Shown: positions 6,016-12,307 of the stretch, one piece after another
Position numbering within the stretch: position 1 is the stretch's first letter
Layout of the letters: every line of letters starts with the position of its first letter
IMG/VR virus record: IMGVR_UViG_2693429700_000004
Direction: 5' to 3' (one strand)
Source of the DNA: a virus
Taxonomy: Duplodnaviria; Heunggongvirae; Uroviricota; Caudoviricetes
Length of the DNA stretch: 12,326 bases
Translations under genes and position numbers: made by a program
Notes under the pieces: generated by a model
Seen by the model: only the letters and a program-made list of their open reading frames with translations
The model's database searches: none
What the model was told of the DNA's origin: nothing

Positions 6016-7437
6016 ATGACCACTATTACCAAAGAGCGACTGCTGACAATCAAGCAGTGGCGCGAAACATACGGACCTGGTAGCAACGTTGTACTGCCAG
6101 CAGAAGAAGCGGAAGAACTGGCACGGATTGCACTGGCATCATTGGAAGCAGATCCAGTTAAACGAGTTAACTCAGATCAGATGCACCGAGTCTGCTTAGA
6201 AGCTAATCGCTATTTAGATAAATATGACGCGATGGCGAAAGAGGTAAATAAGTTGCTTGGACGCATCGCCCCGCCAGCGCCAGTATTTAACGGCGAATAC
6301 GGTGACGCATATCAGGGCGCTCGTGAAGACCTGTCCATCTGGAAACGGCGAGCGCTTGAAGCTGATGAGCACGTTCGGCGACTGGAGCAAATCAATGACC
6401 ACATGGTGAAAGAGGCGCAGGGAGAATCACGCATGGGCGAGCCTGTAATACGTGAGCCAGCACCGGTAGTGCCTGAAGAAGCAACTCCGGAAAACGTAGA
6501 AATGCTCTCTGGCTATGTTTCAACGTACAAATTAACCGATAGCGAGCGCGATATTGCTGCCGAAATATGGAACGCCTGCCGCGCCGCCATGCTTCAGTCA
6601 GGAAACTTTCGGGAAAACAAGAATTCGTCAACCAATAATTTTCGGGAAATCGAGGAAACGTCAACCAACTATCCGGCAATTCCTAGTGAGGTGTTGTCCG
6701 CAATCCTGAAGGTTGCCAGGATTCGTGCCGATTTCGATGATTTTGACGGTGACAGGCGAGGTATCGGTGATTGTCTGGATGAGGCTGAGCAAGAGCTTAT
6801 CGTTACCATTAACAAATATGCCAGTCAGTTGGCAGCAGAACCGATAGCGACTAATGACGTTCGAGAGCAGCAGACAGCCGTTCCGCCAGTTCCGGAAATA
6901 CAGGCTGATGTCGCGCAAGCAATTGAAAATCTCAAGCAGAAGCTAGTGGAATGTAATCGCTATAACTACTGCGCAGATGCAGTTAAAGGCGTAGAGGATG
7001 CCTGCCGTGCTGTTAGCTATAGCCAAGCCGACAATCAACCAGCATCTGGCAACCAGGCTGCCGAATCCAATCGCGGTAATGAGTGGACCGGCAATCCTGA
7101 TATTGATAACGCCATCATCATGCTCGACCGCATAGATACGCTGGAAAATTGCGATGATGACCGTATTGAGGCTGTTAAGGCTGTTTTGCGTAGACTGGCT
7201 GGCAACTATCCGGTAACTCCGGATGGTTGGATAAGCTGTAGTGAGCGAATGCCGAATACCAAAACAGCCGTTCTTGTTGCCGTGGAGTTTGACAGGAAAG
7301 GTGACTGGCGAATGAAATGGGCTACTTACATCCCGGGGCATCCTGACGCTAATGATGGGTGGATAATTCCTGGTGCGTCGTGGAAACCGTCACACTGGAT
7401 GCCGCTACCAGAACCGCCGCAGGAGGTGCGCCAATGA
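6016..7437 (+). CDS. 473-aa phage protein with C-terminal DUF551-type domain (Ead/Ea22-like region)
   Basis: C-terminus GWISCSERMPNTKTAVLVAVEF...WKPSHWMPLPEPP looks like the DUF551 signature as I recall it. AAGGTGA RBS. Internal imperfect tandem DNA repeat at 6604-6670 encodes NFRENKNSSTN / NFREIEETSTN. Confidence 0.65.
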   Translation: MTTITKERLLTIKQWRETYGPGSNVVLPAEEAEELARIALASLEADPVKRVNSDQMHRVCLEANRYLDKYDAMAKEVNKLLGRIAPPAPVFNGEYGDAYQGAREDLSIWKRRALEADEHVRRLEQINDHMVKEAQGESRMGEPVIREPAPVVPEEATPENVEMLSGYVSTYKLTDSERDIAAEIWNACRAAMLQSGNFRENKNSSTNNFREIEETSTNYPAIPSEVLSAILKVARIRADFDDFDGDRRGIGDCLDEAEQELIVTINKYASQLAAEPIATNDVREQQTAVPPVPEIQADVAQAIENLKQKLVECNRYNYCADAVKGVEDACRAVSYSQADNQPASGNQAAESNRGNEWTGNPDIDNAIIMLDRIDTLENCDDDRIEAVKAVLRRLAGNYPVTPDGWISCSERMPNTKTAVLVAVEFDRKGDWRMKWATYIPGHPDANDGWIIPGASWKPSHWMPLPEPPQEVRQ

Positions 7438-7517
7438 TCTGGCCTGAAGCCTTTGCAATTACAGGCGTTGCTATAGCTATTGATTTTTTAGTATATGTTA
7501 TTTGTCGGTGGGGGTAA
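7434..7517 (+). CDS. unannotated mini-ORF, 27-aa hydrophobic peptide (candidate small membrane protein)
   Basis: ATG overlaps the upstream stop (ATGA) and AGGAGG lies 8 nt upstream; MIWPEAFAITGVAIAIDFLVYVICRWG is one predicted TM helix. Not in the ORF track. Confidence 0.35.
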   Translation: MIWPEAFAITGVAIAIDFLVYVICRWG

Positions 7518-7551
7518 AACGTTCGCCGGGATTCACACCAAAGGAGGGAAT

Positions 7552-7656
7552 ATGTCGGATGATATTTCACTGGCAATGGAAGGTGCGCTGGCTGTTATTG
7601 CTGTTGTGGGCGTTTACTGCCTGGTTGTGTTTTTGATGGATCGACTAGGGAACTGA
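7552..7656 (+). CDS. unannotated mini-ORF, 34-aa hydrophobic peptide (candidate small membrane protein)
   Basis: AAAGGAGGG RBS 6 nt upstream of ATG 7552; MSDDISLAMEGALAVIAVVGVYCLVVFLMDRLGN has an acidic N-terminus then a TM helix. Followed by a perfect 22-bp palindrome at 7665-7686. Confidence 0.4.
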   Translation: MSDDISLAMEGALAVIAVVGVYCLVVFLMDRLGN

Positions 7657-7789
7657 ATTCATTACGATATGGGAATTCCCATATCGGGTAAAAACGGTTT
7701 GCGGTAAAGCGAGAGTTAAGTAGAATTGCTGCGGGTGCTTGAGGCTATCTGCCTCGGGCATGCCACCGTAAGGCAGACAGAGAAAAGCC

Positions 7790-7890
7790 CCAGTTAACAT
7801 TACGCGTCCGGCAAGACGCTTAACATTAATCTGAGGCCATATCTATGCTCTACACACGTAGGTTAGCCTCTTACGGACCGAAAGGTCAAG
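7790..7890 (-). ncRNA. sok: predicted Sok-like antisense RNA region (coordinates approximate)
   Basis: Inferred from hok/mok architecture. Minus-strand TTGACC (complement of 7885-7890) is a possible -35; the mok leader contains hairpins and a direct repeat TTAACATTA. Boundaries are not resolved from sequence. Confidence 0.3.
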
Positions 7891-8051
7891 GAGAAGCAGG
7901 CTATGAAGCAGCAAAAGGCGATGTTAATCGCCCTGATCGTCATCTGTTTAACCGTCATAGTGACGGCACTGGTAACGAGGAAAGACCTCTGCGAGGTACG
8001 AATCCGAACCGGTCAGACGGAGGTCGCTGTCTTCGTAGACTACGAATCTGA
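7845..8051 (+). CDS. mok: Mok-like overlapping reading frame (modulation of killing) of the hok locus
   Basis: 68-aa ORF starting upstream of hok and overlapping it in another frame, the canonical hok/mok arrangement. Confidence 0.55.
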   Translation: MLYTRRLASYGPKGQGEAGYEAAKGDVNRPDRHLFNRHSDGTGNEERPLRGTNPNRSDGGRCLRRLRI

Positions 8052-8058
8052 GAAGTAA
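7903..8058 (+). CDS. hok: Hok/Gef-family type I toxin (HokD/RelF-like), 51 aa
   Basis: Translation MKQQKAMLIALIVICLTVIVTALVTRKDLCEVRIRTGQTEVAVFVDYESEK matches the Hok family as I recall it, nearly identical to HokD/RelF except the C-terminal tail. AAGGAGAAG RBS. Not in the ORF track. Confidence 0.85.
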   Translation: MKQQKAMLIALIVICLTVIVTALVTRKDLCEVRIRTGQTEVAVFVDYESEK

Positions 8059-8125
8059 GAGACCAGGCGGGGGAGTAATCTCCCGCCACCTCTGATGTGT
8101 CAGGCATCCTCAACGCACCCGCACT

Positions 8126-8150
8126 AAACCCGCTTCGGCGGGTTTTTTGT
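8126..8150 (+). terminator. intrinsic terminator ending the hok transcript
   Basis: ACCCGC-TTCG-GCGGGT hairpin followed by TTTTTTG. A second 9-bp stem with GTAA loop (8066-8087) lies just after the hok stop but has no T-run. Confidence 0.6.
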
Positions 8151-8333
8151 TGCGTGCTGAATGCGCAGGGTGAAAAATAACCATATATTTGATTATATAC
8201 ACAACAAAAAATAAAAGTCATTGTACCTGCACATTAAATAATCAAATATACAGCGTGAAATAAATATTTTTCAGATTAATATTTTTGTCTCTATGTGGAT
8301 ATAACCGTTTGTACTTATAAACTCGGAGGCATC

Positions 8334-9217: not shown

Positions 9218-9507
9218 TGGTGGATTTACGTAAAGCGGCGCGGGGGCAGATGTGCACCGTCAGAATTCCTGGCTACTGCAATCACGATCCGGAAACGTCT
9301 GTGCTGGCGCATTACCGACTGGCGGGAACGTGCGGAACAGCGATAAAGCCACACGATATGCAGGCAGCGATTGCCTGTAGCTCGTGCCACGATTTAATCG
9401 ACGGGCGGGTAAAAACCGGCGATTACACCAAAGAAGAATTACGCCTGATGCATGCAGAAGGTGTTTTTCGCACACAAGAAATCTGGAGAAAGGAGGGATA
9501 TTTATGA
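9217..9507 (+). CDS. ybcO: DUF1364 / YbcO-like Cys/His-rich putative nuclease
   Basis: 96-aa ORF with spaced Cys/His residues (C13, C21, H23, C54, C57, H58); start overlaps the upstream stop (TAATG). Size and position match ybcO. Confidence 0.6.
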   Translation: MVDLRKAARGQMCTVRIPGYCNHDPETSVLAHYRLAGTCGTAIKPHDMQAAIACSSCHDLIDGRVKTGDYTKEELRLMHAEGVFRTQEIWRKEGYL

Positions 9508-10058: not shown

Positions 10059-10084
10059 CTCAATCTGTTATCCGGGGCTATATT
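10055..10084 (+). promoter_or_regulatory. pR'-like late promoter
   Basis: TTGACT (10055-10060), 18-bp spacer, TATATT (10079-10084); overlaps the stop codon of the Q-like gene. Confidence 0.45.
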
Positions 10085-10146
10085 CCTCACGCGCCAGCAA
10101 AATCTGGCGTCGGGATTAGGAACCCCGGATAGAGACCGCGACAGAC

Positions 10147-10170
10147 ACACGCCGCGAGCGTGTTTTTTAT
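10147..10170 (+). terminator. tR'-like intrinsic terminator about 80 nt downstream of the late promoter
   Basis: ACACGC-CGCGA-GCGTGT hairpin followed by TTTTTTATT. Confidence 0.55.
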
Positions 10171-10331
10171 TGTCGTATGCACGCGCACATCTGAATTATG
10201 GTGGGGCGTATGGGGGAGCTGAAAAGCTCGCCGGTTGGTTTCCCGGTAGTTCCTAACCCTGTACGTCTCACCACCCGATGATTAGGAACCTGACGGTGGT
10301 GATGGTTTAGAAACCACCAGAGGGCGTCATT

Positions 10332-10913
10332 ATGACAACTCAAATTTCTGTTGAAACTCTCTCCCCGATCACCCATAACCAGATTCCTGTTATTACCACC
10401 GAACTTTTGGCGCAGTTGTACGGTGCTGGAGTTAAGAACATTCAAAATAACTACGCCAGAAATGCTGAGCGCTTTATTGAAGGAAAGCATTTTTTCAAAG
10501 TGGCTGGCGATGCCCTGAAAAATTTGCGGGTAGCTTTAAACTACTCACAAAATTTGCAACCATCTTTAAGAGGGTTACAAATTTCCCCGAAAGCCCGCTC
10601 CCTCATCCTCTGGACAGAACGCGGAGCAGCCCGTCATGCCAAAATGCTGGAAACCGATCAGGCGTGGGATGTGTTCGAAAAGCTGGAAGACTGCTATTTC
10701 AGACAAAAGGATCCGTCAGCGCCAGTTTCATGCCAGAAAAGTTACGACACGCGAGTTCTCTGTTATCAGAGAGGCGGTGTCACTGTTTCCACAATTCAGT
10801 TACGGGATGATGATATTGTTATTTCCCTTGAGTCATGGCTGGAACTGGCGAGAGCCAATGGTTGGTTTGTTGTTCGCAGAGATAAACTGGTGGAAAGGTT
10901 GATGCAGCTTTAA
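10332..10913 (+). CDS. ORF6N-domain (antirepressor-like) protein
   Basis: 193-aa ORF with AGAGGG RBS; N-terminal segment TELLAQLYGAGVKNIQNNYARNAERFIEGKHFFKV resembles the ORF6N/antirepressor N-domain as I recall it. Confidence 0.55.
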   Translation: MTTQISVETLSPITHNQIPVITTELLAQLYGAGVKNIQNNYARNAERFIEGKHFFKVAGDALKNLRVALNYSQNLQPSLRGLQISPKARSLILWTERGAARHAKMLETDQAWDVFEKLEDCYFRQKDPSAPVSCQKSYDTRVLCYQRGGVTVSTIQLRDDDIVISLESWLELARANGWFVVRRDKLVERLMQL

Positions 10914-12231: not shown

Positions 12232-12307
12232 GGCCCTTTAGCTCAGTGGTGAGAGCGAGCGACTCATAATCGCCAGGTCGCTGGTTCAAATCCAGCAAGG
12301 GCCACCA
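12232..12307 (+). tRNA. tRNA with CAU anticodon, ileX/ileY-like (tRNA-Ile2, lysidine) and diverged from the host copies; tRNA-Met not formally excluded
   Basis: 76-nt cloverleaf: acceptor stem GGCCCTT/AAGGGCC, D-loop AGCTCAGTGG, anticodon loop CTCATAA, T-arm GGTTCAAATCC, encoded CCA end. Resembles E. coli ileX/ileY as I recall it, with compensatory stem changes. Confidence 0.85.

Follow-up and report, generated by a model that had tools for sequence, protein, structure and literature searches.

Two single-pass membrane micro-proteins encoded upstream of a hok/sok cassette in the early region of a lambdoid Escherichia coli prophage

Small membrane proteins and the segment upstream of hok

Annotation systematically overlooks small membrane proteins, yet among them are several regulators of transporters, sensors, cell division or phage exclusion. 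AcrZ, MgtS, CydX and KdpF are small single-pass inner-membrane proteins that modulate larger proteins, and the prophage protein DicB acts on ManYZ. Among the other small membrane proteins to be considered here, the mRNAs of type I toxins are usually translationally silenced, and the holins belong to a late lysis cassette beside an endolysin, carry a charged C-terminal tail and often have dual starts. The present analysis concerns two short open reading frames (ORFs), termed ORF1 and ORF2, which lie together with a perfect palindrome between a DUF551 gene and a hok/sok toxin-antitoxin cassette in a 12,326-nucleotide (nt) stretch of DNA (hereafter, the window) from the Caudoviricetes record IMGVR_UViG_2693429700_000004, a portion of the early-right operon in a Rac/lambda-like Escherichia coli prophage. 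In the segment, two independent micro-genes are accompanied by one DNA/RNA element of the hok cassette, and the reading preferred here, to which a probability of roughly 0.6 is assigned, is that ORF1 and ORF2 encode two early or accessory single-pass membrane micro-proteins which, by analogy with characterized proteins of this size, would act on larger membrane proteins.

The two products resemble AcrZ, MgtS, CydX, KdpF and DicB in their size (below 50 amino acids, aa), in having one helix, in their terminal motifs and in their coupled operon expression; the resemblance is one of analogy and not of membership, and searches with Pfam, PHROGs and NCBIfam revealed no sequence similarity to any of the five. 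With the Hok/Gef, Ldr, Ibs, TisB and ShoB toxins, ORF1 and ORF2 share the property of being small hydrophobic membrane peptides and, at this locus, the adjacency to hok/sok. They differ from these toxins in that they show no Hok_Gef similarity, no antisense RNA was found for them, their ribosome-binding sites are unmasked and ORF2 is translated in growing cells. The class I-III holins and antiholins are alike only as small phage membrane proteins. The sequence bears out the layout given in the original prediction made for this DNA, in that ORF1, ORF2, the palindrome, an ATGA overlap and the downstream hok are all present.

ORF1 is a conserved gene coupled to the gene before it

ORF1 extends on the plus strand from an ATG at 7434 to a TAA at 7515-7517 and encodes a 27-aa single-pass membrane micro-protein, MIWPEAFAITGVAIAIDFLVYVICRWG, with one hydrophobic 19-residue stretch (mean Kyte-Doolittle value 2.31, compared with 3.07 for Hok). 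The start codon and the TGA (7435-7437) that ends the DUF551 gene overlap within the tetranucleotide ATGA (7434-7437), and the Shine-Dalgarno sequence of ORF1, AGGAGG (7421..7426, plus strand; pairing with the anti-Shine-Dalgarno sequence, -11.6 kcal/mol), lies inside the end of the same upstream gene; these two features characterize ORF1 as a translationally coupled operon gene. The coupling that had been proposed for the window extends to the family, since the ATGA overlap with the preceding gene recurs in all of the approximately 190 ORF1 loci that were tabulated, most of which also carry a GGAGG-type site 7-10 nt upstream of the overlap. The genes that precede ORF1 end in at least four unrelated C-termini, namely …PEPPQEV[RN]Q (DUF551), …RNGLISVEDILR, …NDLKNIEQEVNR and …RAAMLKKKGMNQ.

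The 246 copies of ORF1 that were fetched come from 104 distinct contexts and comprise 66 different coding sequences. Exactly 27 codons are found in 62 of these; three others are shortened by in-frame deletions that leave the C-terminal CRWG intact, and one has lost its stop. The family follows the pattern M-x-WPEAF…CRWG, with an N-terminal WPEAF and a C-terminal CRWG, and in the first alignment, of six representative sequences, the residues M1, W3, P4, A6, F7, G11, R25 and W26 are invariant. One identical peptide of the family, MTWPEAFTTVGIAMAVALVVYSICRWG, is encoded by 25 different DNA sequences. In pairwise Nei-Gojobori comparisons, the ratio of nonsynonymous to synonymous differences (pN/pS) is 0.24 in the ORF1 frame versus 0.95 and 2.06 in the other sense frames and 0.33 to 3.1 in the antisense frames, the value of 0.33 belonging to the frame that shares wobble positions. 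Together, the frame-specific pN/pS, the intact frames and the conserved start signals indicate that ORF1 is a real, conserved protein-coding gene under purifying selection.

Distribution of ORF1 and the sequences that follow it

Relatives of ORF1 with 50-63% identity were found by tblastn in 90 phage records, which include 933W, VT1-Sakai, VT2-Sakai and several other phages carrying Shiga toxin (Stx) 1 or 2, among them Stx2a_WGPS2, as well as virulent Vequintavirinae-type phages such as Av-05. Pattern scans of IMG/VR recovered approximately 510 viral contigs with ORF1 relatives, and a scan of one genome per species returned E. coli, Shigella, a 431-base-pair (bp) contig labelled Xanthomonas, one dubious match in a metagenome-assembled genome and nothing else. 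The 431-bp contig, from Xanthomonas pisi DSM 18956 (L091), carries an ORF1-family match that most likely reflects enterobacterial or phage contamination of a plant-pathogen assembly. In the metagenome-assembled genome, a Pseudobdellovibrionaceae genome of high G+C content (L092, 1501-1698), the match is a 66-aa ORF that starts with MTWPEAFAIVGVA…, is identical to an ORF1 variant over 13 residues and then diverges; it could be a chance match after selection by pattern or a distant relative outside the enterobacteria. The K-12 prophages CPS-53, Rac and Qin, to which the check for named K-12 homologues was confined, yielded none, and they lack ORF1.

With Pfam, PHROGs, NCBIfam and PADLOC, only sub-threshold noise was obtained for either peptide, and a literature search by the two peptide sequences gave no match in the main text of any paper. 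Only a few GenBank records list ORF1 as a protein, and it is unannotated in TW14359, 2013C-3342 and Sakai. Both ORFs had been put forward as unannotated, which is nearly true of ORF1 and does not hold for ORF2: ORF1 is an effectively unannotated family, and ORF2 is already catalogued, as RefSeq WP_001278450.1 ("hypothetical protein", from the NCBI annotation pipeline in close relatives) and as ECs_5710 in the Sakai prophage Sp6, where the DUF551 gene and ORF1 precede it and the palindrome and hok follow, as in the window.

What follows ORF1 is variable. In the 933W type, the hok promoter comes directly after it (56 nt); in a second type, a terminator and other sequence intervene before hok (approximately 220 nt); in the type of the window, ORF2 subtype A and the palindrome precede hok (approximately 230 nt); and in a further type, a hairpin and ORF2 subtype B do so (approximately 305 nt). 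In some loci hok is missing altogether, and xis/int or other genes come after ORF1 instead. The filler of approximately 220 nt between ORF1 and hok (L089, L098, L111 and similar loci) contains a strong terminator-like hairpin (AAAAACCCCGGATTGATGGTCCGGGGTTTTT), after which come a 14-codon ORF (MASKRISGERIAPF and a stop) and a different hok promoter region. Since its upstream and downstream neighbours both vary, ORF1 is a portable early gene, shared by temperate and virulent coliphages, and not a component of hok. The position beside hok to which the original prediction had attached importance is accordingly a property of ORF2 and not of ORF1, which also stands before xis/int and occurs in virulent phage.

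ORF2, its two subtypes and its published translation

ORF2 (plus strand, ATG at 7552 to TGA at 7654-7656) encodes MSDDISLAMEGALAVIAVVGVYCLVVFLMDRLGN, a 34-aa single-pass membrane micro-protein with an acidic N-terminus, whose helix (…YCLVVFLMDRLGN) includes one hydrophobic 19-residue stretch with a mean Kyte-Doolittle value of 2.72. Its Shine-Dalgarno sequence AAGGAGGG (7541..7548, plus strand) is separated from the ATG by a 3-nt spacer and pairs with the anti-Shine-Dalgarno sequence at -12.1 kcal/mol. When 21 gene starts of the window were scored for pairing with the 3′ end of the 16S rRNA, ORF2 came out strongest and ORF1 next. The earlier claim that the two have the strongest Shine-Dalgarno sequences in the window is thus right for the starts that were scored and slightly overstated for the window as a whole, in which a similar site, AAAGGAGGG at 9490, is equally good.

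The exact sequence of ORF2 is present on about a thousand or more contigs, ORF2 copies on viral contigs number approximately 390, and the family was found in 4 isolated phages and 6 plasmids; the classical plasmid hok/sok loci have no ORF2, these 6 being the only plasmid matches. A phmmer search of 1.84 billion representative clustered proteins retrieved only 7 relatives, all close, and there is therefore no wider ORF2 family. A second subtype, B, with the sequence (GTG)LVLKCALAIAAVMAIYCLVIVLMDHLSD, is found in mEp460-type phages and in many viral contigs; it is 50% identical to the window's subtype A over 28 residues (E 1e-9) and retains GGAGG and a GTG start. The end of subtype B is exactly 42 nt from the start of the hok transcript in 78 of 80 loci, and in 56 of those 78 there is no ORF1 upstream. 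Upstream of subtype B, the motif GTATTGAA[GT]-N17-CATATT, a TACGTC box and the ribosome-binding site are the only islands common to three unrelated contexts, and the motif is probably the subtype's own sigma-70 promoter with its 5′ leader, as predicted from its form. Examples of the motif, with the TACGTC box and then GGAG-GTG, are seen at L186 1430-1500 and L008 ~2440-2500 and in other subtype-B loci. The retention of the start codon, the strong ribosome-binding site and the open frame in two subtypes with unrelated flanks points to ORF2 being a genuine conserved gene. The conservation that had been asked of both ORFs is found in their homologues, whose frames are largely kept, one ORF1 copy and one ORF2 lineage, which are discussed below, being among the exceptions.

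Translation of ORF2 was already reported by Hücker et al. in 2017 (PMC5597208), who used RNA-seq and ribosome profiling of E. coli O157:H7 Sakai and whose candidate XECs145 consists of ORF2 with a 20-residue upstream extension. In LB medium, XECs145 had 79.1 reads per kilobase per million mapped reads (RPKM) of RNA and 346.1 RPKM of footprints, with a ribosome coverage value of 4.35 and a coverage of 0.99; in brain heart infusion medium, the respective values were 121.3 RPKM, 150.1 RPKM, 1.14 and 0.84, and under cold and osmotic stress 73.3 RPKM, 1.1 RPKM, 0.01 and 0.37 (PMC5597208). It was presented there as a translated novel gene with a predicted inner-membrane location, with no function assigned and no mention of a link to hok (PMC5597208), and ORF2 was thus not undescribed, as had been supposed. 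XECs145, ECs_5710 and WP_001278450.1 are the same gene as ORF2, and the longer N-terminal extension is not conserved: a run of A between the end of ORF1 and the ribosome-binding site of ORF2 is A4 in the window and A5 in Sakai and most loci, which shifts the upstream frame. This 1-nt difference, which breaks the extension, supports the ATG at 7552 as the true start of ORF2. Neither peptide appears in the supplements of the EDL933 translatome. On the Sakai data, ORF2 is translated even in an uninduced lysogen, in growing cells.

The hok cassette, its linkage to ORF2 and the palindrome

The hok/sok type I toxin-antitoxin cassette occupies 7733..8151 on the plus strand, as delimited from Rfam RF01794, the ORFs and a terminator scan, and hokD is annotated at this place in close relatives. 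It comprises the hok mRNA leader with the sok target (7733-7905; Rfam sok/hok-leader model, 105 bits), mok (7845-8051), the hok coding sequence (7903-8058) and a terminator (8126-8151), all on the plus strand. Since the hok transcript would start near 7733, where the Rfam leader begins, the promoter is placed at 7699..7726 on the same strand, with a putative TTGCGG (7699-7704) and TAGAAT (7721-7726) separated by 16 nt; at the mEp460 locus, the equivalent promoter was picked up by the promoter scan as TTGGCG-17-TAGAAT.

A hok cassette follows ORF2 in 78 of 80 subtype-B loci and in all 80 loci of the window's subtype A, a linkage which, as far as the searches show, is a new observation. Seen from hok, the association is less regular. 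Among 114 phage hok loci that were sampled largely without bias, 12 have ORF2 subtype A, the palindrome and ORF1 upstream, 17 have ORF2 subtype B, at least 15 have ORF1 directly or nearby and 5 have the palindrome alone, and in about 60 loci ORF1, ORF2 and the palindrome are all absent; ORF2 thus stands beside 29 of the 114, and roughly three quarters lack it. The commonest Hok protein is unchanged across four classes of locus (ORF2-A, ORF2-B, ORF1 only and neither), a comparison of the Hok proteins of these classes found no co-variation with ORF2, and BLASTP gave no alignment between ORF2 and the Hok of the window. The possibility that ORF2 is a degenerate Hok paralogue was rejected on the latter ground. 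Moreover, hok persists after the loss of ORF2, as truncated remnants of the latter are found beside intact hok cassettes; in PPompW prophages (e.g., L267, PPompW_132418, 1490-1560), the last two codons of ORF2 ("…GAACTGA") are kept with the palindrome. The same Hok with and without ORF2, the remnants and the lack of similarity together mean that ORF2 accompanies the hok cassette as an optional passenger or accessory and is not its obligatory partner.

In another lineage, only ATGGATCACCTTTCTGATTGA (MDHLSD and a stop) is left of ORF2 behind a new AAGGAG, which makes a 6-codon mini-ORF before hok. In L267 and upstream of hok in L284, L278 and L273, the recombination joints fall exactly at the 3′ end of ORF2.

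The perfect 22-bp palindrome CGATATGGGAATTCCCATATCG (7665..7686), with an EcoRI site at its centre, lies 13 nt upstream of the inferred -35 box of hok; by our own arithmetic, chance alone would produce approximately 0.003 palindromes of this kind in 12 kb. The RNA fold of the palindrome is a hairpin of 9 bp around an AAUU loop. The notion that it goes with the two ORFs fails on its distribution: it occurs beside hok without ORF2 in the PPompW prophages and in other contexts, where its distance to the -35 box is variable, and it is absent from subtype-B and 933W-type loci. Its variants follow lineages and comprise mismatches, one 1-nt deletion and one symmetric double change. A function as a repeated operator was considered and rejected, as the window holds no second copy and no enrichment of half-sites, whose 5 matches against 3.3 expected are at chance level. 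The palindrome appears instead to be part of the left (upstream) border of one subtype of hok cassette and not of ORF2, and its hairpin may act in read-through RNA.

ORF2 and the palindrome are flanked as a block by two direct repeats on the plus strand, GGGTAAAACG (7512..7521, in the last ORF1 codons and the stop) and its partner GGGTAAAAACG (7686-7696), and 933W-type loci have a single copy of the repeat, no block, and ORF1 running straight into the hok promoter. The repeats and their single copy in the 933W type suggest an ancestral junction of ORF1 and hok that either gained the block by insertion or lost it by deletion.

Proposed mode of expression and action, and its alternatives

In the model that follows from these comparisons, a ribosome that finishes the DUF551 gene would stop at the TGA of the ATGA and restart at ORF1, aided by the GGAGG 7-10 nt upstream, and by such coupled re-initiation the ORF1 peptide would be made whenever the phage early operon is expressed. 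Translation of ORF2 would be driven by its own very strong ribosome-binding site, the gene travelling on the upstream side of lambdoid hok/sok cassettes. Both peptides would insert into the inner membrane, where they are proposed to bind and modulate a larger membrane protein and not to act as pore-forming toxins. In read-through transcripts of ORF2, the palindrome would form a stable hairpin just before the hok promoter, which could insulate the hok unit or mark its 5′ boundary.

It has to be noted that several observations weigh against this reading or parts of it. The role as a membrane modulator is drawn from analogy with characterized small membrane proteins. For ORF1, the homologue in the Shigella phage POCJ13 (L002, 1542-1625) has TAG for TGG at codon 3, the sole nonsense copy, which could be a sequencing error or genuine decay; the ribosome-profiling study dropped ORFs below 30 aa, and with them ORF1 (PMC5597208). 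The reads of that study were mapped to a Sakai genome with several near-identical copies, and the ORF was taken from an upstream near-cognate start. Within the ORF2 subtypes, the ORF2 frame has a lower pN/pS than the five other frames, at 0.25 in A and 0.34 in B, with few substitutions behind these values; between the subtypes, it is 0.47 versus 0.46 in one antisense frame, and one ORF2 lineage stops four codons early. Single-sided mutations of the palindrome in some lineages weaken a strict structural role for it, and it lacks a U-tract, for which reason its interpretation as an intrinsic terminator was rejected. Lastly, promoter and terminator scans gave no convincing promoter or terminator for the window's subtype A, in which nothing comparable to the subtype-B motif was found. 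The same observation bears on the comparison with phage morons, which subtype B resembles in its own promoter-like motif and its unrelated neighbours, ORF2 also being expressed in the lysogen, and from which subtype A differs in that it appears to be fused into the early operon behind ORF1.

The alternative that has most to do with the position of ORF2 is that it, and possibly ORF1 as well, works with Hok at the protein level, as an antiholin-like or immunity-like third component which tunes the insertion, oligomerization or timing of the toxin. The fixed spacing at which both ORF2 subtypes directly precede hok, the 29 sampled hok loci that carry ORF2, the single-pass character of all three proteins and the cysteine that ORF2 and Hok each have in the helix would fit such a role, and a modulator of timing would make sense for a toxin that assists phage release after induction, as was described for HokW (PMC8621323). 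This proposal is nevertheless unlikely, given that about three quarters of the sampled cassettes do without ORF2, that the commonest Hok is the same in every class of locus and does not co-vary with it, that the two proteins share no similarity, that hok stays intact beside truncated ORF2 and that modular recombination alone can give physical linkage. Quite unlikely, too, is a bolder combination, in which ORF2 is a dedicated membrane partner of Hok, making three-component hok/sok loci in a subset of lambdoid prophages, and ORF1 is an early host-takeover micro-protein that targets a specific inner-membrane protein. If it were true, the constitutively translated ORF2 would set the threshold or timing of membrane damage by Hok in induction or abortive infection, and ORF1 would be an unrecognized, widespread early gene common to temperate and virulent coliphages.

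The original prediction had likened the two peptides to type I toxins and holins, and small, very hydrophobic single-helix peptides that adjoin a bona fide type I toxin do invite the idea that one or both damage the membrane. Two minus-strand promoter-like sites within the region (7576→7549 and 7518→7490) could in principle yield antisense RNAs; however, the 5 such sites found are not above the 2.7±1.6 expected in shuffled sequence, and subtype B, with a different sequence at this point, has not kept the one that covers the ORF2 start. The search for an antisense RNA over the ORFs came back empty by computation, with no Rfam match at E≤1 over 7400-7700 and no excess structure on either strand beyond the hairpin of the palindrome. 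Instead of blocked translation, there are the two strongest ribosome-binding sites among the 21 starts, exposed and, for ORF1, translationally coupled, and the ribosome coverage value of 4.35 in exponentially growing Sakai, which argues against strong toxicity of ORF2 only. There is no match to Hok_Gef (Pfam PF01848) for either ORF and none in Pfam, PHROGs, NCBIfam or PADLOC at large; no lysis cassette or endolysin is in the neighbourhood, each ORF has a single start with no dual-start motif, and the C-termini are RWG in ORF1 and MDRLGN in ORF2. Nothing indicates that ORF1 or ORF2 is a toxin, and the toxin or holin interpretation is thus very improbable. An equally slim chance is given to the view that the ORFs are not functional proteins, their conservation serving nucleic-acid functions (recombination junctions, a hok leader or insulator) and the footprints being incidental. 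This would account for a hotspot of mosaic joints with four ORF1-to-hok architectures, joints exactly at ORF ends and direct repeats around ORF2 and the palindrome; the selection signal between the ORF2 subtypes is weak, and many intergenic ORFs of the profiling study may be noise. It is countered by the pN/pS of ORF1, its 25 synonymous versions and exclusively in-frame deletions, which are hard to account for otherwise than by selection at the protein level, and by the start codon, ribosome-binding site and frame kept in both ORF2 subtypes, as well as the high ribosome coverage value of ORF2 and its coverage of 0.99. The interpretation of ORF1 and ORF2 as single-helix hydrophobic peptides from real genes, which was part of the original prediction, is in line with their Kyte-Doolittle stretches, pN/pS and intact frames.

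The window and its other features

The window is 100% identical to E. coli Z1323CEC0019 and approximately 98% identical to O157-type strains. Its genes are, in order, those for a repressor and a cro-like protein, ydaT, replication genes, DUF1627, DUF977, a methyltransferase, the DUF551 protein and hokD, after which come DUF1367, DUF1364, DUF1133, an ORF6N gene and tRNAs. ORF1 and ORF2, flanked by the DUF551 gene and hok, belong to the early-right (nin-like) region and lie upstream of the antiterminator region. The early DUF551 gene (6016..7437, plus strand) encodes 473 aa with the domain at the C-terminus (Pfam PF04448, residues 404-469, E 1.3e-20).

Further downstream, at 10078-10278 on the plus strand, there are Rfam matches at gathering level to c4-a1b1 targets (10078-10131), the isrK Hfq-binding RNA (10091-10168) and the C4 antisense RNA (10194-10278), directly 5′ of the ORF6N-domain gene (ORF 10332-10913); together they look like a P1/P7-type C4 antisense immunity module or an IsrK-like module within the prophage. 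A tRNA with a CAT anticodon at 12232-12307 (plus strand) is called tRNA-Met by ARAGORN, and the equivalent gene in a close relative is annotated as tRNA-Ile; a lysidine-type tRNA-Ile is plausible. In that relative, two tRNA-Arg genes come after it, a tRNA cluster of the kind that usually precedes Stx or late genes.

Significance

The finding amounts to two additions to the well-known class of small membrane proteins and does not constitute a new kind of system. ORF1 exemplifies the missed gene, being a 27-aa protein encoded on hundreds of E. coli phage and prophage contigs, which include the Shiga-toxin phages 933W/Sp5 and VT1-Sakai. As to hok, the hokW-sokW pair was described as a working toxin-antitoxin system which aids the release of Sp5 after mitomycin C, with no mention of the upstream ORFs (PMC8621323); as ORF2 shows, some prophage hok/sok cassettes carry a conserved, translated companion gene that was not considered in the published hokW-sokW work. 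If either peptide affects the action of Hok, the timing of lysis or superinfection, this would have a bearing on the release of Stx phages.

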